Shown here piece by piece: positions 1,091 through 20,852 of a stretch of DNA of 64,000 nucleotides (position 1 is its first letter; each line of letters starts with the position of its first letter). The position numbers were made by a program, and so were the translations under genes. Under the pieces are notes generated by a model that ran no database searches, was not told the origin of the DNA, and saw only the letters and a list, made by a program, of their open reading frames with translations. The stretch comes from Chitinophagaceae bacterium (GTDB lineage: Bacteria; Bacteroidota; Bacteroidia; Chitinophagales; Chitinophagaceae), in assembly GCA_051647125.1 (NCBI GenBank), contig JBOFDP010000085.1, forward strand, positions 50,548 to 114,547, read 5' to 3'.

Positions 1091-1098
1091 TAACTTTG
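1091..1098 (+). promoter_or_regulatory. Candidate -7 box (TAnnTTTG) for uvrA
   Basis: TAACTTTG, 9 nt before ATG 1108. This implies a very short leader. Confidence 0.4.
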
Positions 1099-1107
1099 TG
1101 CTTCTTT

Positions 1108-3864
1108 ATGGGAATAGAAAATATCCATATTCATGGTGCAAGAGAGAATAATCTAAAGAATATTAATGTAGATTTTCCTCAACAACAACTTATTATTGTT
1201 ACAGGTCTTTCTGGTTCAGGAAAATCCTCCTTGGCTATGGATGTACTTTTTGCTGAAGGGCAACGTCGCTATGCTGAAAGTCTTTCCTCTTATGCTAGGC
1301 AATTTCTTATACGTGCGAAAAAACCCGATGTAGATTATATTACGGGTATTGCTCCGGCTATTGCGATAAATCAAAAAGTGGTCAACAGAACACCTCGTTC
1401 TACCGTAGGGAGCATTACAGAAATTTATGATTATTTACGTATTTTATTTGCTCGTATAGGGAAAATTTATTCTCCAATTTCTGGCATAGAAGTAACAAGG
1501 CAAGATACTGATTTTGTATTAAATTTTATTCTTCAATCTTCATTAAATTGCAAAATATATATTTTATTTCCTTTCCCAAACACAAAAGATAAAAATGAGA
1601 TTACTAAAGATTGCCAAATTCTTCTTCAAAAAGGATTTACTCGGTTATGGATTAATAATGAAGTTACAAACATAGAAGATATTAGAAAAAAATCTATAGA
1701 TACTCAAAAAGCATTTGTTTTAGTAGACCGATTAATTATCTACAACAAAGAGGATGAAGATACCTTACATCGGTTAACAGATTCCTTGAATACTGCGTTT
1801 TTTGAGGGGCATAATGAGATGACGCTACAAATAAATAATAACATATATTCATTTACCAATAGCTTACAAGCTGATGGTATAAACTTTGAAACTCCTTCTC
1901 CTAATCTTTTTTCATATAACAACTCTTTAGGGTCTTGTGCCACCTGTGAAGGGTTAGGATTTAGTTTGGGTATTGATGAGCATTTAGTTATCCCTAATAA
2001 AAATATCAGCCTTTATGATGGGGCTGTTGTTCCTTGGAAAGGAGCAATTATGGGTTGGTGGAAAGAACAGTTTATAACTAATGCCCGTCAATTTAATTTT
2101 CCTATTCACAAACCTATCACCGAACTTACAGAAGAACAATACAAAACACTCTGGAAAGGTAATAAGTATGCACAGGGCATTGATGCATTTTTTGAAGACA
2201 TACAACGTCATCTATATAAAATGCACTACCGCATACTATATGCTAGATACAGAGGAAAAACAATCTGCCCTACTTGTAAAGGATCTCGCCTATGTAAAGA
2301 GTCTTTATATATAAAAATTAAAGGGAAAAATATATACGAACTTTGTACTATGCCTATAGAAGCTCTTTGGCAATGGCACAAAACACAATCTTGGGATACA
2401 CATGAAAAAAATATTGCAAAAAGACTTTTTATAGAAATAGAACAACGACTAAAAACTATTATAGACGTTGGAATGCCTTATCTTACATTAAATAGAGCTG
2501 CCAATACCTTAAGTGGGGGCGAAAGCCAACGACTGCAACTAGCAAAATTCTTAGGAAGTAATCTTACTCAATCTCTCTATATTTTAGATGAACCTTCTAT
2601 AGGACTCCATCCTCGAGATACTCATCATCTTATCAATATACTAAAAAAATTACGCGACTTAGGAAATACGGTTATTGTTGTAGAACATGATGAACAAATT
2701 ATAAAAGAAGCAGATTATATTATAGATATGGGTCCTTTAGCTGGTAAAAAAGGTGGGGAAGTAGTATTTGCAGGAACTCCTAAAAATTTATCACAAACAA
2801 AAACACTGACCTCTGAATACCTCAGTAAGAAAAAAAATATAGGTAACCATAAGCATCATCTCCCAAGTTATACAAAACTTATCAAAATAAAAGGTGCTGT
2901 ACATAACAATCTAAAAAATATAGATATTTCTTTTCCTCTATATGCTATGACCGTAGTTTGTGGAGTAAGTGGTAGTGGAAAATCTTCTTTAGTAAAACAT
3001 ATTTTATACCCCGCCCTGGTGAAGGCTAAAAAATTATCCCTCCCTATTACCAATAATCTTGGACAATATAAAACTTTAGTAGGTAATTTAGATGAAGTAA
3101 AACACATTGAATGGATTGATCAAAATACAATAGGACGTACTTCTCGTAGCAATCCGATTTCTTATATGAAAGCCTACGACGATATTCGACAACTTTTTTC
3201 AAATCAATACCAAAGCAAATTAAGAGGATTTCTTCCCAAACATTTTTCTTTCAATGTAGAAGGAGGAAGATGTGAAAAATGTAAGGGAGAAGGGGAAGAA
3301 GTTGTTGAAATGCAGTTTCTGGCAGATGTACGACTTGAATGTGAAGTATGTCATGGCAAAAGGTTTAAAGATGAAGTACTGGAAGTAACCTACAATAAAA
3401 AAAATATTTATGATGTTCTCAATATGACCGTCGATGAGGCCATAGATTTTTTTAACAATGAAAAACATTTTATACACAAAATAAAGGCTTTACAAAAAGT
3501 AGGATTAGGATATGTTGCTCTTGGGCAAAGCCTTTCCTCTATGAGTGGAGGAGAATTACAACGTACCAAGCTAGCCACTTTTCTGGTAGATAAAGATAAC
3601 CCTCCACATACCATATTTATCTTTGACGAACCCACTACAGGACTTCATTTTGATGATGTCAATAAGCTATACCATGCTTTTTCTCAACTCATAGAAAAAG
3701 GAAATACCATCATTATTGTAGAACATCATTTAGATCTTATAAGACATGCTGATTGGATTATAGAGCTAGGACCTGAATCTGGAGAAAAAGGAGGTTATTT
3801 ACTCTACTGTGGACATCAAAAAGAATATTTAAAACAAAACACCCCTACTACCAAATTTTTATAA
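1108..3864 (+). CDS. uvrA: Excinuclease ABC subunit A (UvrA family)
   Basis: Two ABC modules with Walker A GLSGSGKSSLA and GVSGSGKSSLV and signatures LSGGESQRL and MSGGELQRT. CxxC pairs are CATCEG, CPTCKG, CEKCKG and CEVCHG. The track start 1096 is TTG; ATG 1108 (MGIENIHIHGARENNLKNI) is more likely. Confidence 0.9.
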   Translation: MGIENIHIHGARENNLKNINVDFPQQQLIIVTGLSGSGKSSLAMDVLFAEGQRRYAESLSSYARQFLIRAKKPDVDYITGIAPAIAINQKVVNRTPRSTVGSITEIYDYLRILFARIGKIYSPISGIEVTRQDTDFVLNFILQSSLNCKIYILFPFPNTKDKNEITKDCQILLQKGFTRLWINNEVTNIEDIRKKSIDTQKAFVLVDRLIIYNKEDEDTLHRLTDSLNTAFFEGHNEMTLQINNNIYSFTNSLQADGINFETPSPNLFSYNNSLGSCATCEGLGFSLGIDEHLVIPNKNISLYDGAVVPWKGAIMGWWKEQFITNARQFNFPIHKPITELTEEQYKTLWKGNKYAQGIDAFFEDIQRHLYKMHYRILYARYRGKTICPTCKGSRLCKESLYIKIKGKNIYELCTMPIEALWQWHKTQSWDTHEKNIAKRLFIEIEQRLKTIIDVGMPYLTLNRAANTLSGGESQRLQLAKFLGSNLTQSLYILDEPSIGLHPRDTHHLINILKKLRDLGNTVIVVEHDEQIIKEADYIIDMGPLAGKKGGEVVFAGTPKNLSQTKTLTSEYLSKKKNIGNHKHHLPSYTKLIKIKGAVHNNLKNIDISFPLYAMTVVCGVSGSGKSSLVKHILYPALVKAKKLSLPITNNLGQYKTLVGNLDEVKHIEWIDQNTIGRTSRSNPISYMKAYDDIRQLFSNQYQSKLRGFLPKHFSFNVEGGRCEKCKGEGEEVVEMQFLADVRLECEVCHGKRFKDEVLEVTYNKKNIYDVLNMTVDEAIDFFNNEKHFIHKIKALQKVGLGYVALGQSLSSMSGGELQRTKLATFLVDKDNPPHTIFIFDEPTTGLHFDDVNKLYHAFSQLIEKGNTIIIVEHHLDLIRHADWIIELGPESGEKGGYLLYCGHQKEYLKQNTPTTKFL

Positions 3865-3942: not shown

Positions 3943-4016
3943 GGCGAGGTAGCTCAGGTGGTTAGAGCGCAGGATTCATAACCCTGAGGTGGCGGGTTCA
4001 ATTCCCGCCCTCGCTA
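3943..4016 (+). tRNA. tRNA with CAU anticodon (Met; a lysidine-modified Ile2 cannot be excluded)
   Basis: Cloverleaf folded by hand: D stem GCTC/GAGC, anticodon loop TTCATAA, T arm GCGGG-TTCAATT-CCCGC. My fold gives G1-U72 and A31-C39 non-Watson-Crick pairs. No encoded CCA. Confidence 0.85.
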
Positions 4017-9182: not shown

Positions 9183-10127
9183 TTAATTATATGCTAATTT
9201 TGAATAACTAGAAATAAATTCGTCATAGACCATTTTTATACCTTGTTCTAAAGAGATTTTTGAACTCCATCCGATCGCATATAACTTAGAACTATCCATC
9301 AGTTTTCTTGGTGTACCATCAGGCTTTGTTGTATCCCAAATAACACGACCATAATATCCAACTATATTTTTTATTTTTTCTGCTAATGTTTTGATTGTCA
9401 ATTCCTGCCCACTTCCTACATTAATATGTCCATAATCATTATAATTCAACATACAAAAAACAATAGCATCAGCCATATCATCGGCATACAAAAATTCTCT
9501 TAGTGGTGAACCCGTACCCCACAATAGGACTTCTTTTGAATGGTTGATTTTGGCTTCGTGAAATTTGCGTATCAATGCAGGCAGTACATGCGAATTTTGC
9601 AAATCATAATTATCTCCTTTCCCATAAAGATTGGTAGGCATTACACTCACATAATTACACCCATATTGCTTACGATAATAATTACACATTTTGATACCTG
9701 CAATTTTGGCTATGGCGTAGGCTTCGTTGATGGTTTCAAGCAAACCTGTTAGCAATGCCTCTTCTTTCATAGGCTGTGGTGCAAGTTTGGGATAAATACA
9801 AGAGCTGCCGAGAAACATCAATTTCTTTACACCATGAAGATATGAGGCGTGTATCACATTAGTTTCTATCATTATATTTTCATAAAAAAACTGAGCGGGA
9901 TAAGTATTGTTGGCTACTATGCCACCCACTTTGGCGGAAGCAAGAAATACATAATCAGGTTTTTCTTGGGCAAAAAAATCAGTAACAAAGAGTTGATTAG
10001 TTAGGTCAATTTGTTGGTGTGTAAGAAGTAGAAAATTAGTGTATCCTTTTTCTTCAAGATTGCGTAATATAGCACTGCCTACCATTCCCAGATGTCCGGC
10101 AATATATATTTTGGCATTTTTTTCCAT
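9183..10127 (-). CDS. fcl: GDP-L-fucose synthase (GDP-4-keto-6-deoxymannose epimerase/reductase)
   Basis: [20 protein letters not shown].., ..LGSSCIYP.., ..YAIAKIAG.. (extended SDR). The track start 10154 is TTG; ATG 10127 is preferred. Confidence 0.85.
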
Positions 10128-10146
10128 TGTTTTTAAGCTTATATTT

Positions 10147-11284
<1,138 letters not shown>

Positions 11285-12397
11285 TTAAGAAGCAAAAACT
11301 TCCACTTCTATTTTTTTATAGTGATTCCAAATAATATCCATAGCATAATTGTCTTCTACTTGTTTTCTACCATAGATTCCCATTGCCCTTTTTATTTTAT
11401 ACTCTAATTGAATAAATTTTTCCATAGCATTATATAAACTTTCAACACTTTTCATTTCACAAATAAATCCATTCTCTCCATCTTTTACAACATCTTTGCA
11501 ACCTGGTGCATTAGTGGTAATAATAGGTTTTTCCATAGCCATAGCTTCCAACAATGAAATAGGAATTCCCTCTCTATAAGAAGGCAACACAATGCAAGAC
11601 GCTTTAGCAATATAATTTTGTATGTCTTTATGATATCCCCAATAGTCTATTAATTTACTTTCAAACCATTTATCTAATTCTTGCTGAGTAAGTGCTGATG
11701 TATTGGATGCTCCAATTTCACCTATAAAAGCAAATAGACTATTAGGATATTTTTCTTTTAGTTTTTTAGCAACCTCAAAATATTCTACTATACCTTTTTG
11801 CCTAATAGCTCTGCCTATCATTAAAAAAGTAATATTTGGTATATTAGTATCTTGTGGTATATATTCTTCTATGGCTATACCTTCGCTGGGCAGTAAATAT
11901 AAGTTGTTTTTTATTTTAGGAATTAATAAAGACAATTCACTAAAATCATCTTTATTTAATACTACTACTCGTTTAGCTTTTGGAAAAACAAATTTATATA
12001 ATATAGATACTATTTTATAAATTAAACCTTTATCTATAAATGCCGTACCCAAACCTGTTACAAAATTGACAAATGGTATTTTTAACCAATACGCTATTAT
12101 TCCTCCATAAATATTGGGTTTAATGGTATAGTGATATATAAGGCTGGGTCTAATAGATTTATATATTTTATAATATTGGTGCATAACTCCTATTTCTTTA
12201 AATGGATTTTTGCTCTTACCTTGCATCTTAAGAGAATAGCAAGTACAGCCTATAGAATTATAATACCTCACATACTCACTATCATAAGGTGCAAGTAAAT
12301 AAATAGTATAGTCTTCTTTAAGATATCGTTTTATAATTTCATTTCTAAAATTATATAGCGAGGAATAGTTATTGACAGAAAATAATATTTTAGGCAT
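11285..12397 (-). CDS. Glycosyltransferase, GT4 (GT1-fold) family
   Basis: C-terminal EX7E region: LPSYREGIPISLLEAMAMEKPIITTN. Confidence 0.8.
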   Translation of the reverse strand: MPKILFSVNNYSSLYNFRNEIIKRYLKEDYTIYLLAPYDSEYVRYYNSIGCTCYSLKMQGKSKNPFKEIGVMHQYYKIYKSIRPSLIYHYTIKPNIYGGIIAYWLKIPFVNFVTGLGTAFIDKGLIYKIVSILYKFVFPKAKRVVVLNKDDFSELSLLIPKIKNNLYLLPSEGIAIEEYIPQDTNIPNITFLMIGRAIRQKGIVEYFEVAKKLKEKYPNSLFAFIGEIGASNTSALTQQELDKWFESKLIDYWGYHKDIQNYIAKASCIVLPSYREGIPISLLEAMAMEKPIITTNAPGCKDVVKDGENGFICEMKSVESLYNAMEKFIQLEYKIKRAMGIYGRKQVEDNYAMDIIWNHYKKIEVEVFAS

Positions 12398-13103
12398 AGT
12401 GGTTAAATATATATCTTTTTAATGTATAGTATAAGACATATAAGCGATATTTAATCATAAACCATAATGAATTTTTGCTTTTAGTACCAGATGTCGAGAA
12501 TGTTTGATTATGTCTTCTATAATAAATTAATGGTACATCAATATATCTTATACTATACTTCAGCTCTGCTAATAAACCAAACCAAACATCATGCCCTATT
12601 ATATTATTGGGAATAGGTAAAAAAAACGATAACATGTTTCTATTAAAAGCCATCGTGCAACCTACATAAACTCCTTTATATAAGTTATCAATATATCCAG
12701 ATTTATACCTTCTCCATTCGCTTAACTTTTTTATAGAGTTAAGGTTGTCATCACATATCCAAGCATCGGTTAATATCAATTGGTTTTCTTGTATATTTTT
12801 TAGAATAATATCTACTTTATTAGGTAGCCACACATCGTCTTGGTCACTTAAAAAAATATAATCTCCTGTACTATGTTTCAGAGCATTTTCAAAATTCTTT
12901 GTATATCCTTTTCTTCCTTGATTAATAAATATTTTAATCCTATCATCACTGTATTCTCTTATAATATCAAGTGTTTTGTCAGTAGAACCATCATCTGAAA
13001 TAATTACCTCACTATCTTCTCCTATTTGATATAGAATAGAATCTAATTGTTCTTTTATGTATTTTTCACCATTATAGGTAGCTATGCAAACGGAAATTTT
13101 CAT
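12390..13103 (-). CDS. Glycosyltransferase family 2
   Basis: MKISVCIATYNGEKYIKEQLDSIL..VIISDDGSTD..LSDQDDVW (GT-A DxD pattern). Confidence 0.8.
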   Translation of the reverse strand: MKISVCIATYNGEKYIKEQLDSILYQIGEDSEVIISDDGSTDKTLDIIREYSDDRIKIFINQGRKGYTKNFENALKHSTGDYIFLSDQDDVWLPNKVDIILKNIQENQLILTDAWICDDNLNSIKKLSEWRRYKSGYIDNLYKGVYVGCTMAFNRNMLSFFLPIPNNIIGHDVWFGLLAELKYSIRYIDVPLIYYRRHNQTFSTSGTKSKNSLWFMIKYRLYVLYYTLKRYIFNHYA

Positions 13104-13106
13104 GAT

Positions 13107-14168
13107 TTAGCTTTGATTATTTCTAATATAATGTTTAATAAACAGATGCATTTCTTCCATCTTTATACCCCAATCAAAAGAGTCTAAATATTTTTTAATT
13201 TTTTCTATATTTAATTCTTTTTTTGTAGTTTTTTCTAATAGATTAATAAGTTCTTTTTCATTTTTGGGATTAAAAAAATCAACGAATTCAGGAGAAAATT
13301 CTTTTAGTGCACCTCCATGAGAAGATATAATTGGAACTCCAAAAGATAATGCCTCCAAAACAGGCATTCCAAAACCTTCATAAAGAGATGGATATACAAA
13401 GGCTTTGCAATATTTATATAAAGAAGCTAATGTTTCTTCATCTACAAAATTAACAAATATAATCCTAGTATTTTGGCATATTATTCCTCCATTATTATTT
13501 CCGCATATTACTAATTTTTTTGATGTATTAGCTTTTAGAAAACAGGCTATTAAAAATCTAACATTTTTATGATGCATGGTAAGACCTACATATAAAAAAT
13601 ATTCATGTTTTTGTAAATTGAGTTTTTCAATTTTTAAAATATTTGTATTATGATGTATTTTATTTAGTCCATTTAATACGATTATGGAATTTTTGCCAAA
13701 AGCTTCATAAACATCTTTACGAGTAGTTTCTGAAATAGAAAAAATAATATCAGAGTTTTTAAGAGAATATCTAATAAAAAAATCTGTTTTTATAATACCC
13801 AATTTGTTTTTCCAAAAAGATTTTCTGTAAAAGTTGGGTACTACTTTATACATAATATCATGTATAGTTGTAATATAAATTTTTCCTTTTATTTTAAACA
13901 AAGAATTGTAGTGGTTGGGGAAATGATAAATATCGGCATCTATTTTTTTTAGAAACTTGTGAAAAGTAACAAAATTCCAAAAAGAATAGGTTTTCTTGTC
14001 AAAAATAATAGTTTGAAATCCACTATTTTTAGGGTATGATTTGTTCACAAGTACAAACACATTTTCAAATCTATATCGATCTATATAACTTTGAATTAAT
14101 ATCAATGTATAACGTTTAATTCCCGTACTTATCTCCATTAAACAGCGCCCGTCAATTAGGATTTTCAT
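13107..14168 (-). CDS. Glycosyltransferase, GT4 family
   Basis: YPSLYEGFGMPVLEALSFGVPIISS (EX7E region). Confidence 0.75.
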   Translation of the reverse strand: MKILIDGRCLMEISTGIKRYTLILIQSYIDRYRFENVFVLVNKSYPKNSGFQTIIFDKKTYSFWNFVTFHKFLKKIDADIYHFPNHYNSLFKIKGKIYITTIHDIMYKVVPNFYRKSFWKNKLGIIKTDFFIRYSLKNSDIIFSISETTRKDVYEAFGKNSIIVLNGLNKIHHNTNILKIEKLNLQKHEYFLYVGLTMHHKNVRFLIACFLKANTSKKLVICGNNNGGIICQNTRIIFVNFVDEETLASLYKYCKAFVYPSLYEGFGMPVLEALSFGVPIISSHGGALKEFSPEFVDFFNPKNEKELINLLEKTTKKELNIEKIKKYLDSFDWGIKMEEMHLFIKHYIRNNQS

Positions 14169-15346
14169 TATTGTATATCTTTTAAGGATTTTCTATTTTC
14201 ATTAAATTCTAAATATCTACTTTGAAAACTTTGAACTTCAAAAAGTAAATTTTCGTATTTCATAATTATATCAGAATTTAATTTTATTAATTTTAAAGAA
14301 CCATAAGTTAATAGTACAAAAATAAATATATATTTTTTATTTTTATGGTAAAATAGAGAATATATATTGGTAAAAAGAATCCAATATGAAAAGACAAATA
14401 ATAGAGAAACTCTTTCTGTTACTACAGTAGCTTCACTAAAATAAAAGAAACATATAAAATATAGAATATATCCATTTATAAAAAGAATATTTTGTTTATT
14501 TACTTGAATTAGTTTTTTATAATAGGTCAAAACAAATAAGTAGGACAAAAACCGCTCTATGTATCCTATTGAAAGACCATAGGGTTTACTAAAATATTCA
14601 CTAGCAAAATAAATCACTATTTTTTCTTGTATTTTTCCTCCAAATATATTACCTAATGTTTGAAATATGGGTTCTATATATTGTATCTGAAATAAAAAAA
14701 TGATATTTCCAATCACGAAAATGGCTATCAATAGTTTAATAGAAAATCGTTTGTGTAAGAAAAAGTATAATGGCAGATATATGATAGAGCTAATATGAAA
14801 ACTCATACCTATTAAATTTAAAATCATGTATTTTGTCAATTTTCTTTCTTCCAAATATTTTAAAGAAAGTAAAAATAACATAATAGCTTTAACATTTCTA
14901 TAGAAATTAAATTCTATAATTATTCCTTGAAAAAGAATGAATAAAATAAAACTTAAAACATAGTACTTTGAATATCGTTTAAAAATAATATTTAAAATAA
15001 GTACATCAATCAAGGTATTAATAAATACCCAAAAGAAATAATTATCCCAAATACTTTTAATAATCATTGAATACCATTCAAAGCCAATGTCAAATACATA
15101 ATCGGTAAACTTAAACCCATCCCATATAGTAGGTAAATCTTGAAAATATGGGTAATAATTAATAAAATCTGTATATACATGTCCTCTCAATCCAAAGAAA
15201 AAAAGGAACCCAATAATCACTGCCCAACGAACATATTTGGTATTAATATTTTTATTCATGCAATGAAACTCCGAAAACATCAACAAAACCAAATACCCCA
15301 AAAAAATAAGGTAAGGAATAGAATATGTATAGCTTATGAGTGGCAA
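14168..15346 (-). CDS. EpsG-family polytopic membrane protein (probable Wzy-like polysaccharide polymerase)
   Basis: About 10 predicted transmembrane segments, aromatic-rich, and located inside the glycosyltransferase cluster. TTG start as given by the track. Confidence 0.6.
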   Translation of the reverse strand: MPLISYTYSIPYLIFLGYLVLLMFSEFHCMNKNINTKYVRWAVIIGFLFFFGLRGHVYTDFINYYPYFQDLPTIWDGFKFTDYVFDIGFEWYSMIIKSIWDNYFFWVFINTLIDVLILNIIFKRYSKYYVLSFILFILFQGIIIEFNFYRNVKAIMLFLLSLKYLEERKLTKYMILNLIGMSFHISSIIYLPLYFFLHKRFSIKLLIAIFVIGNIIFLFQIQYIEPIFQTLGNIFGGKIQEKIVIYFASEYFSKPYGLSIGYIERFLSYLFVLTYYKKLIQVNKQNILFINGYILYFICFFYFSEATVVTERVSLLFVFSYWILFTNIYSLFYHKNKKYIFIFVLLTYGSLKLIKLNSDIIMKYENLLFEVQSFQSRYLEFNENRKSLKDIQ

Positions 15347-15348
15347 GA

Positions 15349-16230
15349 TTATCTATTTTTAAATATCGTTTTCCAAAGTTTTATTTTATGTTTATTACCC
15401 AGCAAAGTAAATATCACAATTCTTGAAAAACAAGTAGTTGTAAAAATAATATTTAATAGAATTCTTGCAAAGAAATAATGTGTTTTTCTATAGTATATTT
15501 TACGGCTTTGTAAGATATATTGTATTCTCTTGAGATTGTTGTCTAAAAAACTTTGACCTTCGAGGTGAATAATTTTTGCTTCTGGTATACTCATTATTAT
15601 ATATCCTTTTTTCGTTATTCTATAAGTGAGTTCAGTTTCTTCATAATACATAAAAAAATCTTTATCAAAACTACCTACTTCGTCTAATACCGATTTTCTA
15701 ACCATCATATCTGCTCCGGTAATGTATCCTACTTTTTGTGGTATGGTGGAATAATTAAAGTAATAATTTTTTCCATACCTTATTTTTGAAATCAATCCTC
15801 CAAATAACATATTCAATTCCCATACCATAGAGGGTAAATATTTTTCATAAGAATGTGTTGAATTATTTTCCTTATCGTACAAATTTCCACCCACGACGCC
15901 AACAGTTTCATTTGTATCTAAATAATCTGAAAGTATTTTTACAGCATTGTTTACAAGAATAGTATCAGGATTTAAGAAAAGAATATTTTCCCCTTTGGCT
16001 ATTTTTATTCCTTCATTGTTAGCTCTGCCAAAACCCACATTTTCGTAGCTTTGTATATAAACTATTTTATCTCCAAAATATTTTTTTACTTGTTCTCCAT
16101 CAGAAGAGCAATTATCTACCACAATCACTTCGTAAGTAATACCTTCCGTTTTTTCAAAAATAGAGTTTATAGCATTTTTGATTAGTTCAAATGAATTATA
16201 ATTTACAAGAAGTATAGAGCAATTCATCAT
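15349..16230 (-). CDS. Glycosyltransferase family 2
   Basis: CSILLVNYNSFELIKNAINSI..EVIVVDNCSSDG..FLNPDT. Confidence 0.8.
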   Translation of the reverse strand: MMNCSILLVNYNSFELIKNAINSIFEKTEGITYEVIVVDNCSSDGEQVKKYFGDKIVYIQSYENVGFGRANNEGIKIAKGENILFLNPDTILVNNAVKILSDYLDTNETVGVVGGNLYDKENNSTHSYEKYLPSMVWELNMLFGGLISKIRYGKNYYFNYSTIPQKVGYITGADMMVRKSVLDEVGSFDKDFFMYYEETELTYRITKKGYIIMSIPEAKIIHLEGQSFLDNNLKRIQYILQSRKIYYRKTHYFFARILLNIIFTTTCFSRIVIFTLLGNKHKIKLWKTIFKNR

Positions 16231-16277
16231 TTAATTTTTTAGTTTACTAATTTCATAATAATAATATTGGAAGCCAT

Positions 16278-16579
16278 TAAAAATTATAAGAGTAATCTCT
16301 TTATATCTCCTAAAAAGCAGAATTCAAATTTGAATTCTGCCATATTTTTTACAAAAATACATTTATATAAAAAAAGGTAAATAAAAAAAATTTGTGTGTT
16401 GAAAATTCAAAAAGTGCGTCTTAAAATTGTATATAAAAGAAGATACTCGTTCCACTCTCCGAGTGTATCTTTGTACTCTTTTCAAATCAAAAAACAACAT
16501 ACGTAGTAAAAACAATAGGAGACCTAAAGAGAGTATCCCTTCTTTATTATATGGAAAAATACCCCCACATGATACAGAA
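16278..16579 (+). repeat. Copy A of the dnaB upstream/5' repeat (a relic without a start codon)
   Basis: Aligns with 19093-19406 with roughly ten substitutions. It has a 27-bp insertion (16384-16410) and lacks the 37 bp that hold the dnaB ATG. It still encodes SKNNIRSKNNRRPKESIPSLLYGKIPPHDTE and carries an orphan TATCTTTG box at 16466-16473. Confidence 0.9.
16317..16340. terminator. Perfect 24-bp palindrome, possibly a bidirectional terminator or an operator
   Basis: GCAGAATTCAAATTTGAATTCTGC, flanked by AAAAA on the left and CATATTTTTT on the right. Confidence 0.4.
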
Positions 16580-16769
16580 TTAAATATAAAAGAGCTTTTT
16601 ATGGTAGAAAATTGGTATTTTTTCATATACAAAAAAGAAATTAGCCATTTAATTACTATTTTTTACACAGCAAATATACTATTTTTTTATTATTTGAGGT
16701 TGTTTTTAGGAAATGTAAAATATAATCCTTGCCATGATAGGTTGATATATAAGGCAACTGGGGAAGGCA

Positions 16770-18212
16770 TTATTTTAATCTCTTCTTCAATAATGTGATA
16801 GTATCTATTAAAATATAATTGCGAGCGATATACCTTTGCAAGATTAGATAAACAAGAGCAGACGCACCAATAAATATAACAAGAAATGATAAGCTAGTGG
16901 TTATTATACATGTATCCATTATCCAATATATTGCCACAATGGCAATACTGCAAATAGTAGCTTTTATCATGTTGATCCATTTCACTCGAATAGGTGTTAG
17001 TTTATATACAAAATATAGATTTAGAAACATCTCAAAACTTTGTGCAAAAACAGACCCAATAGAAGCTCCAATTGCCCCTAATCTTGGAATACAAATTAAG
17101 TTTAAGATAAAGGAAAAAATAGCAGTAATAATCACCGTAAATAAATATTTTTTTTCATATCCTAAAATAATTAATACATTAGTAACAAAGAAAATATTCA
17201 TCATGCTAAATATAATGTTTAAAGATAAAATTTGCATAGGAATAATACTACCTACAAATTCATATCCAAAAAACATAGGCACAAATCGTGAACTGCATAA
17301 ACATAAACCAATGGATGCCGGAATAATAATTAGCATTATAGCATCAAATGCATTTTGCAAAAGGATATTGTTTTGTATATGTTCTTTATTCGCATTATTT
17401 GCAGACAAACGAGGAATCAATACGGTATTAATAGCACCAATTACTACAAGAAGTAAAAAAATAATTCTACTTGGAGATGTATACAATCCTACCTGCTCAT
17501 AAGTAGAAAGGAAGCCAAGCATGAGTACATCCAGGATTAAATAAATACTTACTGAAATATGAGACAGAAAAAATACTCCCATTGATTTGAGATGTTGCTT
17601 GATATTCAACTTGCTAAAATATATTTTTAGCCCTTTTTTAGTAGCATAGATAATATTCCATACTTGATTGCCTACTATGGCAAAAGAAGATAATGCAATG
17701 TATGCCAGCAAATCGTCTCTTTCTCTCACAAATACAAAAAGCCCTATAAAACTAAGTGTTTTTATCACAGCAGAACGAATGGTGATAAGCCTGAAATTTT
17801 CTTGCCCCTGAAAAAACCAATCTATAGAAATAGGTACTAAATAAATACTCATTCCTCCTACGATATAAAGCCATTGATATGCCCTAAATTCGGGTATTAA
17901 AAAAGTAGTAGCTATATAGATGATACTTACAACGATTGTAGCTATTAGATTTATCCTAAAAAGTTCTGAAAATAGTTGATTGGTTTTTTCTTTATTCTCT
18001 CTACCTATCTTAGCTATTTCTCTCACACCATAATAGCTAATACCAAACATAGCGAAGAATACAAAATAGTTGGCATAAGTATTGATAAAACTTACTATAC
18101 CTACATTTTCTACACCAAGCACACGAGATATATAAGGTACTGTAACTAAAGGAAAAAGCACATTAAGCGCCTGCAAAGCCACATTGTATGCAAAATTCTT
18201 TTTTAGCAACAT
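16770..18212 (-). CDS. wzx: Polysaccharide flippase (Wzx, MOP/PST superfamily)
   Basis: MLLKKNFAYNVALQALNVLFPLVTVPYISRVLGVENVG is the typical Wzx N-terminus. About 12-14 transmembrane segments. The track start 18260 is TTG; ATG 18212 is preferred. Confidence 0.75.
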   Translation of the reverse strand: MLLKKNFAYNVALQALNVLFPLVTVPYISRVLGVENVGIVSFINTYANYFVFFAMFGISYYGVREIAKIGRENKEKTNQLFSELFRINLIATIVVSIIYIATTFLIPEFRAYQWLYIVGGMSIYLVPISIDWFFQGQENFRLITIRSAVIKTLSFIGLFVFVRERDDLLAYIALSSFAIVGNQVWNIIYATKKGLKIYFSKLNIKQHLKSMGVFFLSHISVSIYLILDVLMLGFLSTYEQVGLYTSPSRIIFLLLVVIGAINTVLIPRLSANNANKEHIQNNILLQNAFDAIMLIIIPASIGLCLCSSRFVPMFFGYEFVGSIIPMQILSLNIIFSMMNIFFVTNVLIILGYEKKYLFTVIITAIFSFILNLICIPRLGAIGASIGSVFAQSFEMFLNLYFVYKLTPIRVKWINMIKATICSIAIVAIYWIMDTCIITTSLSFLVIFIGASALVYLILQRYIARNYILIDTITLLKKRLK

Positions 18213-18238
18213 TTTTCCTTGATTTTTATTTTTGCAAG

Positions 18239-18246
18239 CAAAAATA
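18239..18246 (-). promoter_or_regulatory. Candidate -7 box for wzx
   Basis: TATTTTTG on the minus strand, 26 nt before ATG 18212. Confidence 0.4.
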
Positions 18247-18315
18247 TCCTTTTCTATCAAATTTTGAATATTTCTTTTTGTCCATGAAGTTTGTTTGTAG
18301 GTGTATTACAATTTT

Positions 18316-18972
18316 CTAATCTCTTGATTTATTTTTAATTAATCTATGAATTTCATCAAATGGGTACTTGTTTTCTTCAATTGGAGAATAAAATAAATTT
18401 ATATTTTCTAAAAAATCAGAGGTAGAAAGCATAGATAAATCAAATGTCAATAATTTACTAATAGTTTCATCTGTGAACCGTTTTTTGATCACGCGTGCAG
18501 GTATTCCACCAACAATTGTATATGGAGGTATGTCTTTGGTAACAATAGATCCAGTGCTAACAATAGACCCTTTTCCTATTGTTACTCCAGATAATATTTT
18601 TACTCCATATCCAATCCATACATGATCTTCAACAATAATATTTCCTTTGGATATAGCATCTATTTCAGAGCGTTTAACAAACATTGATTGAAAAGGAAAA
18701 GTAGATATATTTTTTGTTTGATGATTTTCATTAAGAAAAAAGATTACCTCATTAGCAATAGAAACAAAATTTCCAATGATAAGTTATTCTTTTGAATAAG
18801 GAGAATAACATATCAAATTAATTTCTCCATAAGAATAATTACCAACTGTAATCTGATATATTTTGCAAGATCCTTTTAGACTTGTATAATTGTGCTTATT
18901 CTTTTTTCTCCATTTTTTGTTTAAATAATAATTGCGCAAAATTTCTTTTATATTATAAATAAAGTTACTCAT
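18316..18972 (-). pseudogene. Hexapeptide-repeat O-acetyltransferase interrupted by one in-frame TAA
   Basis: Track ORFs 18784..18972 and 18316..18684 share a frame. Reading through TAA (18784-18786) gives ..[80 protein letters not shown], a continuous left-handed beta-helix acetyltransferase. Confidence 0.75.
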
Positions 18973-19133
18973 ATTTTAATTTGGGTATATCCGTGTCTCA
19001 ATTTTTCTTAGTTCAAAACAATTTCAGAGTTATCTATCAAAATGTAATTGTGTATCATTGTAATATTATATAAATAAAGGCAGAGAAGCAAATAAAAATT
19101 ATAAGAGTAATCTCTTTATATCTCTCCTAAAAA

Positions 19134-19157
19134 GCAGAATTCAAATTTGAATTCTAC
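19134..19157. other. Second copy of the 24-bp palindrome, with one mismatch
   Basis: GCAGAATTCAAATTTGAATTCTAC, in the divergent spacer between the acetyltransferase relic and dnaB. Confidence 0.4.
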
Positions 19158-19255
19158 CATATTTTTTCCAAAAATACATTTATATAAAGAAAGGTAAATA
19201 AAAGTGCGTCTTAAAATTGTATATAAAAGAAGATACTCGTTATACTCTTCGAGTG

Positions 19256-19263
19256 TATCTTTG
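19256..19263 (+). promoter_or_regulatory. Candidate -7 box for dnaB
   Basis: TATCTTTG, 23 nt before ATG 19287. Preceded by the imperfect inverted repeat AGATACTCG..CGAGTGTATCT. Confidence 0.45.
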
Positions 19264-19286
19264 TACTCTTTTCAAATCAAAAAAAT

Positions 19287-20852
19287 ATGGCAGAAATTAA
19301 TCTAAAAGACAAATCAAAAAACAACATACGTAGTAAAAACAATAGGAGCCCTAAAGAGAGTATCCCTTCTTTATTATATGGAAAAATACCCCCACATGAT
19401 ACAGAACTTGAAGAACTTATACTAGGGGCTATTATGTTAGAAAAGGGGGCTTTTGATATGGTATCTGAAATACTGAAACCTGAATGTTTTTATCTTGACA
19501 AGCATCAAAAGATTTTTACTGCCATGAGGCACCTTGTGTCTCAATCTCAACCCATAGATATTGTTTCTGTAAAAAACGAACTAGAATCTTTAGGTGATTT
19601 AGATATTGTAGGAGGTGCTTATTATATAGCCCAAATCACTAATAATGTATATTCTACAGCTCATTTAGAAATGCATGCTCGTATTTTACTTCAAAAGTTT
19701 ATTCAACGTGAACTTATAAGTATAGGAAGTACCATTATCAAAGATGCTAGTGAAAATACTACACAAGTATTTAACTTATTAGATAGTGCTGAAGATAGTA
19801 TTTTTAAAATTACTCAAAACTATTTACGTAGTGATTATCAGGATATAGATAAAGTTTTGGTAGACACCTACAAAAGAATAGAACATTTACGTACCCATCA
19901 AGAAGATCTTTCGGGTGTACCTTCGGGATTTTCTCATTTAGATAAAATTACTAATGGATGGCAATCTACCGACTTAATTATTTTAGCAGCTCGCCCCTCT
20001 GTTGGGAAAACTGCATTTGCTCTAAATCTTGTACGTAATGCCGCCTTACATCCTAAAAAACCCATACCTGTAGGCATCTTTTCCTTAGAAATGTCTTCCG
20101 CACAACTAGTACAAAGACTACTCGCCGCTGAATCAAAAATTTCAAATATAAAAATCTCCCGTGGACAATTACAACCTCATGAAGTTGAGCAACTCAAAAA
20201 AAAAGGTATCAATAGACTTACCAATAGTCAAATATTTATTGATGATACCGCCGCACTCAATATTTTTGAATTGCGTGCTAAATGTAGACGAATGGTTAAT
20301 AAACATAAAGTTGGGTTAATTGTGATTGATTATCTTCAACTTATGAATGCTATTAGTGATAACAAAAATGGGAATAGAGAACAAGAAATAAGCCGTATTT
20401 CTAGAGAGTTAAAAGGATTGGCAAAAGATTTAAATGTACCCATTATTGCCCTATCTCAACTAAATCGTTCTGTGGAAGGTAGGAAGGAAAGCAAAGTACC
20501 TATGCTTAGTGATTTGAGAGAATCTGGTGCTATAGAGCAAGATGCTGATATGGTATTATTTCTCTATCGTCCAGAACTTTATCAAAATAAAAACGAACAG
20601 GGAGAAGACCTTACAGGTATTACAGAACTGCATATTGCTAAACATAGAAATGGTTCTTTAGATATGGTAAACTTTATGTTCAATAAAAATTGTCAACATT
20701 TTGAAGAATCAGAAGAAAGTGGCTATAAGGTACAAGCAAAAATAGGGGCTGGAGGATTTGATGCTGTGCCACCATCTCATAAAACACTAGAAATTCATAG
20801 TACCATTCCTTCAAAAGCAGTTCCTGAAGATGACGATAATATACCTTTTTAA
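19287..20852 (+). CDS. dnaB: Replicative DNA helicase DnaB
   Basis: N-terminal domain ..IPPHDTELEELILGAIMLE.., Walker A ARPSVGKTAFAL, ..VIDYLQLM.., ..LSQLNRSVE... Plus an extra C-terminal tail of about 47 aa ending EDDDNIPF. Confidence 0.92.
   Translation: MAEINLKDKSKNNIRSKNNRSPKESIPSLLYGKIPPHDTELEELILGAIMLEKGAFDMVSEILKPECFYLDKHQKIFTAMRHLVSQSQPIDIVSVKNELESLGDLDIVGGAYYIAQITNNVYSTAHLEMHARILLQKFIQRELISIGSTIIKDASENTTQVFNLLDSAEDSIFKITQNYLRSDYQDIDKVLVDTYKRIEHLRTHQEDLSGVPSGFSHLDKITNGWQSTDLIILAARPSVGKTAFALNLVRNAALHPKKPIPVGIFSLEMSSAQLVQRLLAAESKISNIKISRGQLQPHEVEQLKKKGINRLTNSQIFIDDTAALNIFELRAKCRRMVNKHKVGLIVIDYLQLMNAISDNKNGNREQEISRISRELKGLAKDLNVPIIALSQLNRSVEGRKESKVPMLSDLRESGAIEQDADMVLFLYRPELYQNKNEQGEDLTGITELHIAKHRNGSLDMVNFMFNKNCQHFEESEESGYKVQAKIGAGGFDAVPPSHKTLEIHSTIPSKAVPEDDDNIPF

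Follow-up and report, generated by a model that had tools for sequence, protein, structure and literature searches.

A truncated second copy of the dnaB 5′ region within a strain-variable polysaccharide locus of a Chitinophagaceae bacterium: a candidate scar of homeology-guided recombination

How did a piece of dnaB, the gene for the replicative helicase, come to lie inside a surface-polysaccharide cluster 2.8 kb upstream of the intact gene? The question is raised by a 64,000-nucleotide stretch of contig JBOFDP010000085.1 (hereafter the window), taken from a metagenome-assembled genome (MAG) of a Chitinophagaceae bacterium (GCA_051647125.1). The live gene (19287–20852, plus strand; Pfam DnaB and DnaB_C) is preceded by its native upstream region, which together with codons 1–40 makes up copy B (19093–19406, plus strand). 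A truncated duplicate, copy A (16278–16579, plus strand), comprises the dnaB upstream region and codons 9–40 without the ATG, and the two copies bracket a flippase gene, wzx, and an acetyltransferase gene. An earlier note on this DNA proposed that foreign sequence had entered at the junction between a family 2 glycosyltransferase (GT2) gene and dnaB by single-crossover (Campbell-type) integration of a circle. We arrive at a different answer, which we regard as moderately probable: copy A is a non-functional scar, left in situ by homeology-guided recombination at the junction in the middle of a modular polysaccharide locus that varies among strains. We infer the type and order of the recombination steps, and likewise the absence of any present function in copy A.

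Self-comparison of the window by blastn paired 16270–16611 with 19085–19444 (E = 1.5e-93), the sole substantial repeat that it found in the 64 kb; a repeat finder and MAFFT gave concordant results. The copies are direct repeats of ~300 bp in the same orientation, 2.8 kb apart, and their high-identity core (16270–16579 versus 19085–19406) is 96.8% identical, with 9 substitutions in 283 aligned columns. Three indels separate them: 2 bp in surplus in copy B (19121–19122), 27 bp present in copy A only (16383–16409) and 37 bp present in copy B only (19273–19309). The earlier note had described this ~300-bp repeat accurately, counting roughly ten substitutions and the same three indels; its placement of the 27-bp insertion at 16384–16410 differs from ours by a shift within an A-run and is equivalent. 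The 37-bp segment includes the dnaB ATG (19287) and codons 1–8 and is edged, as had been noticed, by a repeated word, two copies of CAAATCAAAAAA at 19273–19284 and 19310–19321. For the 27-bp piece, MAFFT hinted at counterparts in two relatives introduced below, L081 and L082; outgroup shuffle tests were not significant (p = 0.23 and 0.46), and the difference may be an insertion in copy A or a deletion in copy B.

Within copy A, dnaB codons 9–40 persist as a relic (16483–16579, plus strand) at 99% identity, with one substitution relative to the live gene. An open reading frame (ORF) of 123 codons (16427–16798) crosses copy A in the dnaB frame and still spells DnaB through the relic, as the note had read it, in the form SKNNIRSKNNRRPKESIPSLLYGKIPPHDTE. 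When DnaB was compared with the spacer by tblastn, residues 9–56 aligned (E = 7e-19), and weak in-frame dnaB-like similarity continues beyond 16579 to ~16621, the equivalent of DnaB residue 56. The fragment in copy A is non-coding: it lacks codons 1–8 and ends at codon 40 (decayed to ~56), with intact dnaB elsewhere. Both wzx and the acetyltransferase gene are single-copy, meaning that the repeat unit was not doubled whole and that the duplication extends over ~300 bp only.

Two informative relatives were found via a protein database. L082 is a conspecific MAG (GCA_051659225.1; the species has two conspecific assemblies in the cluster listing) whose contig spans the whole locus and ends inside dnaB, and L081 is a contig of a related species with a DnaB 87% identical and the same gene order right of dnaB. 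No second dnaB fragment occurs in the entire locus of L082 or in the 2.9 kb upstream of dnaB in L081, in keeping with the earlier description of copy A as a derived, truncated duplicate and marking it as lineage-specific. Beyond these two, a DnaB scan of GTDB representative genomes gave best relatives of ≤64% identity, and JGI metagenomes, searched once with the DnaB N-terminus and once with an exact 23-mer from the dnaB relic, returned nothing close.

Comparison with these relatives revealed how far the locus varies. In L082, dnaB is 99.06% identical (12 of 1276 nt differ), with a divergence of 2.6% at 4-fold degenerate sites. This genome agrees with the window in gmd (95%) and again from ~33 bp before the dnaB ATG onward; between these flanks it carries wzx451, a methyltransferase, a GT4, an epimerase, a GT2, EpsG, a second GT4 and a second GT2, and its intervening proteins reach at most ~30% amino-acid identity to those of the window. 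In L081 the dnaB-proximal pair differs again, consisting of a 260-aa gene and wzx451. It is the whole gmd–dnaB interval that varies, not merely the bracketed 2.5 kb, and the left and right modules differ independently among genomes. To judge from these sequences, a swappable polysaccharide locus has dnaB as its conserved flank on the right. Its upstream region (19093–19286 versus L082 9172–9451) is only ~62% identical despite 99% identity in dnaB, with conservation confined to the −7 promoter box TATCTTTG and short patches. The contrast places a cassette-exchange breakpoint at the very start of dnaB, so that the dnaB promoter region moves with the cassette. The −7 box upstream of dnaB does not vary among the window, L081 and L082, and the right half of copy B shows weak homology to the corresponding regions of both relatives.

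The genes on either side of copy A proved to be related in origin. To its left lies GT2_293 (15349–16230, minus strand; 293 aa; Pfam Glycos_transf_2, E = 1e-21), the first gene of the left, gmd-proximal module, which adjoins copy A; to its right lies wzx, here termed wzx496 (16770–18260, minus strand; Pfam Polysacc_synt, E = 2e-31). Genome L083 (GCA_964450725.1) contains an operon with the order wzx, GT1, GT2_293 (10001–13456). Its wzx is 66% identical to wzx496 and is the closest homolog outside the source genome, and its GT2 is 70% identical to GT2_293; blastp found no match between the window wzx and the wzx451 of L081 and L082. Since the genes left and right of copy A both match one operon, they share ancestry, and the bracketed module is not independently foreign. 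After L083, Wzx496 and GT2_293 have their closest counterparts in Bacteroidales MAGs (Candidatus Symbiothrix, Prevotellaceae; ~50%) and not in Chitinophagales, which suggests that this portion of the cluster was long ago transferred between orders.

Both ends of copy A fall at breaks in homology. On the left, window 16227–16277 matches L082 4430–4480 at 84%, and the match ends precisely at the start of copy A; in L082 this segment is the start of its unrelated GT2 gene plus 47 bp upstream. The left flank of copy A, spacer S1 (16231–16277), is common to L082 and, together with its L082 continuation R2 (to ~4531), forms what is left of a wzx496-type 3′ end: L082 4457–4528 matches the 3′ end of the window wzx (16806–16877) with z = 14. 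A corresponding relic, R3 (19040–19107), makes up the left flank of copy B and reaches ~15 bp into it; it scores z = 6.9 against window 16811–16885 and z = 7.8 against R2 (L082 4487–4531), and tblastn aligned Wzx residues 444–461 to it on the minus strand. A tblastn search of the spacers with all cluster proteins for further gene relics returned DnaB and, weakly, the Wzx C-terminus only. When a relic of the GT2 5′ end, which would have made the duplicated unit larger, was sought left of copy B, a 25-nt match on the same diagonal was obtained; it was not significant (p = 0.049 when tested narrowly, 0.56 when tested more widely) and was rejected.

On the right, dnaB codon 40 gives way at 16580 to a non-coding element, E. 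Its right part, E_R (16580–16707), starts exactly at the right junction of copy A, and its first ~40 bp are weakly dnaB-like. E_R is 87% identical to L081 47–173, where the adjacent coding DNA is less conserved (78–79%), and a sequence model of E matched L082 4763–4874. The left block of E, TTTTAAGGTAGaAAATAtGTTTTCTcAGAGAAGCAGGGT, is present in L081 (1–46) and L082 (4766–4806) and missing from the window because copy A sits in its place. In both relatives the dnaB-proximal module is bordered by E on its left; a search for E as a dispersed family found no additional occurrence in the window or among 90 other loci. The outcome in the window is a novel joint in which dnaB codon 40 is linked in the same orientation to E_R, 2.8 kb upstream of dnaB, and copy A lies at the boundary between differently related blocks, S1 (common to L082) and E (common to L081 and L082).

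A further similarity lies directly at this right joint. Window 16584–16621 matches dnaB 19417–19454 (codons 44–56) at 28 of 37 nt, in frame, with p ~0.001 in dinucleotide shuffles before correction for ~9 tests. Both repeat ends thereby adjoin the sole significant homeologies of the dnaB region with the spacer, R2 versus R3 on the left and E_R versus dnaB codons 44–56 on the right. Two other candidates were rejected: the left block of E showed no similarity to dnaB that would make it a decayed relic (p = 0.33–0.61), and spacer X of L082 (4532–4760) tested negative as a homolog of the dnaB upstream region. Within element E, TTTTAwrGTAGmAAAT occurs twice in imperfect form, and L081 retains as TATCTTTG a minus-strand TAnnTTTG box of the element (16671–16678); E may serve as a promoter or leader of the glycosyltransferase operon, or as a recombination anchor.

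These observations can be assembled into a history. The locus would be anchored by gmd and fcl on the left, by the central spacer S1...E in the middle and by dnaB on the right. Its ancestral layout was probably that of L082 and L081, namely glycosyltransferase genes, S1–R–X–E (left block and E_R), the dnaB-proximal module, R–U and dnaB, where R denotes the wzx relic and U the dnaB upstream region. About 300 bp of the genome's own dnaB upstream region and 5′ coding end would then have been copied ectopically over the central spacer, replacing R, X and the left block of E. The wzx 3′-end relic, present beside both S1 and the dnaB upstream region, could have served as the left guide, and the ~37-bp stretch of E resembling dnaB codons 44–56 as the right one. 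One possible route is ectopic gene conversion in one event, by a double homeologous crossover with own or sister-cell DNA, R and the dnaB-like patch of E acting as arms. Alternatively, an unequal homeology-guided crossover may have produced a tandem duplication running from E_R to dnaB codon 40, the first unit of which was later mostly lost by R × R deletion; as only ~300 bp are present twice, any tandem-duplication reading must assume such a secondary deletion, seen as the S1|U joint. Later decay would account for the remaining differences: a slippage deletion of 37 bp between the 12-bp repeats would have taken the ATG, and 9 substitutions and further indels would have accumulated. Because dnaB is essential, the codon-40 joint could survive only with an intact dnaB kept alongside, hence the duplicate that is seen. 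Divergence between the copies is 3.2%, similar to neutral inter-strain divergence, so the scar is not recent. Segmental duplication, which the earlier note had offered as its alternative, comes closer to this history than does its Campbell integration.

Additional scars in the locus, namely the wzx 3′ relics, a gmd pseudogene and a nonsense mutation in the acetyltransferase gene, speak for a history of this kind. The wzx496-type relics sit beside the GT2 gene that opens the left module in both strains (window 16254–16292; L082 4457–4528) and, in the window, also upstream of dnaB. The flippase of L082 is now of the unrelated wzx451 type, and the wzx496 relics are evidence of earlier cassette exchanges.

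Several points weigh against the recombination-scar reading. The ancestral architecture is drawn from two relatives, one conspecific and one of a related species. The right homeology is short (28/37 nt), and the equivalent test within L081 gave p = 0.13. At the left junction a 41-bp gap separates copy A from the position expected from the R relic, which calls for a misaligned crossover or an extra deletion. The topology equals that of a circle re-integrating, so sequence alone is also compatible with a Campbell event involving conspecific DNA. Copy A may moreover have a present function as a promoter, a terminator or an antisense source, and it has persisted for long, its divergence from copy B matching neutral divergence between strains.

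Campbell-type integration of a circle carrying E_R, wzx, the acetyltransferase gene and a dnaB 5′ fragment, by a single crossover at dnaB, appears to us doubtful, though deserving of serious consideration. It would explain why direct repeats of a host fragment bracket a two-gene module and why essential dnaB is left intact, as insertion-duplication predicts; the codon 40|E_R joint could represent closure of the circle, and the 3.2% divergence of the copies lies within the inter-strain range, so that donor and recipient could be different strains. The relatives tell against it. The earlier note had asked whether dnaB directly follows the GT2 gene in related genomes; such an empty site, a GT2 gene next to a single dnaB 5′ region, was not seen in L081 or L082, both of which have E and a wzx451-containing module there. 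Foreign insertion at the GT2|dnaB junction also fits poorly with the ancestry that wzx496, inside the repeats, shares with GT2_293, outside them, through the L083 operon. The recipient of a circle would have been a flippase-less cluster with GT2 beside dnaB, and no such genome was seen. Copy A also replaces a ~330-bp spacer that the relatives keep, so an extra deletion would still be needed.

The bracketed DNA likewise lacks the marks of a mobile element. The compositional contrast that the note had suggested looking for is absent: GC content is 28.2% in 16580–19092, 25.9% in the left module (the rest of the cluster) and 29.5% in the window, so the bracketed segment is ordinary in this respect. 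A Pfam scan of the ORFs in window 1–29 kb detected no integrase, transposase or recombinase, and no tRNA gene adjoins the repeats, the nearest standing at 3943 and 28279; the note's remark that no recombinase lies nearby thus holds. The repeats are ~300 bp of dnaB DNA, unlike short att repeats. Comparison with plasmids gave a match confined to the core of the hexapeptide acetyltransferase, and with that core alone matching, a plasmid origin of the bracketed DNA was rejected.

A one-sided import appears improbable. Here a fragment from a donor with GT2 beside dnaB, running from gmd/fcl through the left module to the donor's own dnaB 5′ end, would have recombined homologously on the left and been joined on the right at the dnaB-like patch of E, the recipient wzx module being kept, in the manner of homology-facilitated illegitimate recombination (HFIR). 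Its merit is that one step would explain both an S1|U joint resembling an R2 × R3 deletion product and a right joint beside a homeology. On the gmd flank, divergence from L082 is greater (95% identity) than in dnaB (99%), consistent with imports on that side, and HFIR is established in transformable bacteria according to the works listed as references 42–44 of PMC3784515. The price is a postulated donor in which a cluster lacking a flippase adjoins dnaB and the upstream region is of the 97%-identical type, when the only other conspecific is ~62% identical there. In addition, GT2_293 and wzx496 would have to be assigned to donor and recipient, respectively, despite their common ancestry.

Could copy A instead have been kept for a function, as a promoter of the GT2 operon, as a terminator or insulator hairpin between wzx and GT2, or as a source of antisense transcription into wzx? 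Both copies do carry recognizable motifs. Copy A retains the dnaB −7 promoter box, TATCTTTG (16466–16473, plus strand; live copy at 19256–19263), and a minus-strand TAnnTTTG box, TATTTTTG (16352–16359; copy B counterpart at 19169–19176), which is a motif match only. It also contains a perfect 24-nt palindrome, GCAGAATTCAAATTTGAATTCTGC (16317–16340), whose counterpart in copy B (19134–19157) has one mismatch. As minus-strand RNA the palindrome folds with −19.1 kcal/mol in copy A and −16.5 kcal/mol in copy B and is followed by U5. The substitution in copy B retains pairing (G·U) on the minus strand only, and the plus-strand RNA hairpin is weakened there. The palindrome holds two EcoRI sites, lies ~130–150 bp before the dnaB start with A5 on one side and T6 on the other, and has no equivalent in L081 or L082. 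It would be a predicted bidirectional terminator; in copy B it stands between divergent genes, with no obvious need for termination. A search for inverted repeats found this palindrome inside each copy only, copies A and B themselves being direct.

Retention for function is also suggested by the persistence of copy A through ~3% divergence, by the sparing of minus-strand pairing in copy B and by the fact that no plus-strand terminator is predicted between 16480 and the wzx body. Set against this, TAnnTTTG is barely above chance in so AT-rich a window (146 matches versus 119±11 expected), and the minus-strand box nearly abuts the hairpin and U5 downstream of it. The relatives do without such a copy, and an Rfam search of 15–21 kb in E-value mode gave no match. 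Persistence is equally explained by selection against loss of wzx combined with short identity blocks (≤57 bp). On balance a function for copy A seems to us about as improbable as the one-sided import.

A bolder version, in which the duplicate would be no dead DNA but a regulatory cassette at work, is a shade less credible again. It could take several forms. The dnaB promoter of copy A, firing antisense into wzx, could couple the flippase to regulation of the replicative helicase gene; the minus-strand box with its hairpin and U5 in each copy could act as a promoter-proximal attenuator, placing both halves of the cluster under common control; or the direct repeats could form a RecA-dependent one-way off switch for Wzx-dependent export, with viable crossovers limited by the 37-bp deletion to the left two thirds. 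An assembly artefact, a chimera of co-occurring strains joined via shared dnaB-upstream sequence, is most unlikely: the source is a MAG, the locus is strain-variable and the conspecific L082 assembly is fragmented here, its contig ending inside dnaB, but a strain switch would not yield the codon 40|E_R joint, where no long k-mer is common to both, the copies are distinguishable in assembly by three indels and 9 substitutions with a longest perfect block of 57 bp, and the 157-kb contig runs into conserved synteny on both sides.

The earlier note had further expected that recombination between the copies could excise the module and abolish Wzx-dependent export in one step. Such an event would indeed remove wzx and the acetyltransferase gene (2.79 kb), but it is less easy than proposed. 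Perfect-identity blocks between the copies measure 57, 42, 39, 33, 28 and 23 bp; those of 57 and 39 bp fall to the right of the 37-bp deletion, as does about one third of the repeat. A crossover left of that deletion would yield intact dnaB with a 2.79-kb deletion. To its right, the product is a dnaB without ATG, whose next in-frame start is Met50, so that about one third of the repeat yields a start-less gene. Loss of the only wzx would probably be counter-selected, judging from general knowledge of Wzx-dependent pathways.

The surrounding genes constitute a polysaccharide cluster of the Wzx/Wzy type on the minus strand (9183–18972), divergent from dnaB. From left to right it comprises fcl, gmd, GT4, GT2, GT1, an EpsG-family polymerase, GT2_293, copy A, wzx and the acetyltransferase gene; its gene set thus includes a Polysacc_synt flippase, a Wzy-like polymerase of the EpsG family and glycosyltransferases of families GT2, GT4 and GT1. 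Right of dnaB follow housekeeping genes: a haem-binding-domain gene, pdxA and ubiD. Between the copies, the earlier inventory was correct, consisting of one wzx with its own upstream TATTTTTG box (18239–18246, a motif match) and a hexapeptide-repeat acetyltransferase pseudogene (18316–18972, minus strand) interrupted by a single in-frame stop, at codon 63 (18784–18786). The probable start of wzx is Met17 at 18212. The GDP-mannose 4,6-dehydratase gene gmd (10300–11284, minus strand) is a pseudogene with three lesions relative to conspecific L082: 'ITG' is gone from the N-terminal GxxGxxG motif, an in-frame stop interrupts the protein (VEKR*FVLHYG), and a frameshift lies at ~10525–10535; the adjacent fcl is intact. 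Together, the gmd lesions and the acetyltransferase nonsense mutation suggest a locus undergoing decay or remodelling. Among the ORFs of the gmd–dnaB interval (9183–18972), no initiating phosphoglycosyltransferase, Wzz chain-length regulator or Wza export domain was detected; if the cluster is active at all, initiation, chain-length control and outer-membrane export must be encoded elsewhere. Far to the left, the only other internal repeat of the window (2661–2756 versus 3699–3794; 73% over 96 nt) falls within a UvrA-like ORF (1096–3864) and most likely reflects the two ABC ATPase domains of that protein.

How does copy A compare with known systems? Capsular polysaccharide loci of Bacteroides carry invertible promoters bounded by inverted repeats and switched by a site-specific recombinase. 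The present locus resembles them in being a surface-polysaccharide locus of a Bacteroidota member with repeats around a promoter region; it differs in that the 300-bp repeats are direct and 2.8 kb apart and that no recombinase was found in 1–29 kb.

A closer parallel is offered by the O-antigen clusters of Salmonella groups B1, D1, D2 and D3, in which gene remnants and partial duplications occur at internal junctions (Reeves et al. 2013, PMC3715488). The examples include wzy remnants, a partial wzy duplication in D3 and an H-repeat remnant at the D1/E joint, all taken as recombination footprints (PMC3715488). As there, a hypervariable cluster with conserved flanks contains non-functional fragments where blocks of different ancestry meet. 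Here, by contrast, the remnant is the 5′ end and promoter of the essential flanking gene dnaB, in direct orientation, with no insertion sequence (IS) or H-repeat, in a Chitinophagaceae MAG. Merodiploidy by tandem duplication, in which an intact essential gene is kept beside a disrupted one, has been shown experimentally with lethal cassettes (Johnston et al. 2013, PMC3784515). It shares with our case the tolerance of a disruptive joint in an essential gene, and the use of self-DNA and unequal pairing of partial repeats without a mobile-element enzyme. Its duplications, however, are 100–900 kb long, IS-bordered and unstable, whereas the present one is ~300 bp, joined at short homeologies and old (~3% diverged). 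Campbell insertion-duplication and HFIR, as represented by two entries in the reference list of PMC3784515 (Prudhomme et al. 2002; de Vries & Wackernagel 2002), likewise involve direct repeats flanking a segment and one joint at micro- or homeology. The present case departs from them in that its bracketed DNA is not demonstrably foreign, there is no empty site, and the second junction, S1|U, overwrites a resident spacer.

The type of scar is therefore already known; what is unusual is that the remnant derives from an essential flanking gene and its promoter region. For annotation, the 123-codon ORF through copy A should be regarded as part of a pseudogene, and the direct repeats that bracket the module should not be mistaken for the ends of an island. 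The conserved element E is a more open-ended by-product of the analysis. On the recombination-scar reading, short homeologies would suffice to create new joints without a mobile-element enzyme, and the central spacer S1...E appears to let the two cassettes exchange independently. The locus thus offers a view of how surface-polysaccharide genes are organized and remodelled in an uncultured Chitinophagaceae lineage, with dnaB as one of the recombination anchors.

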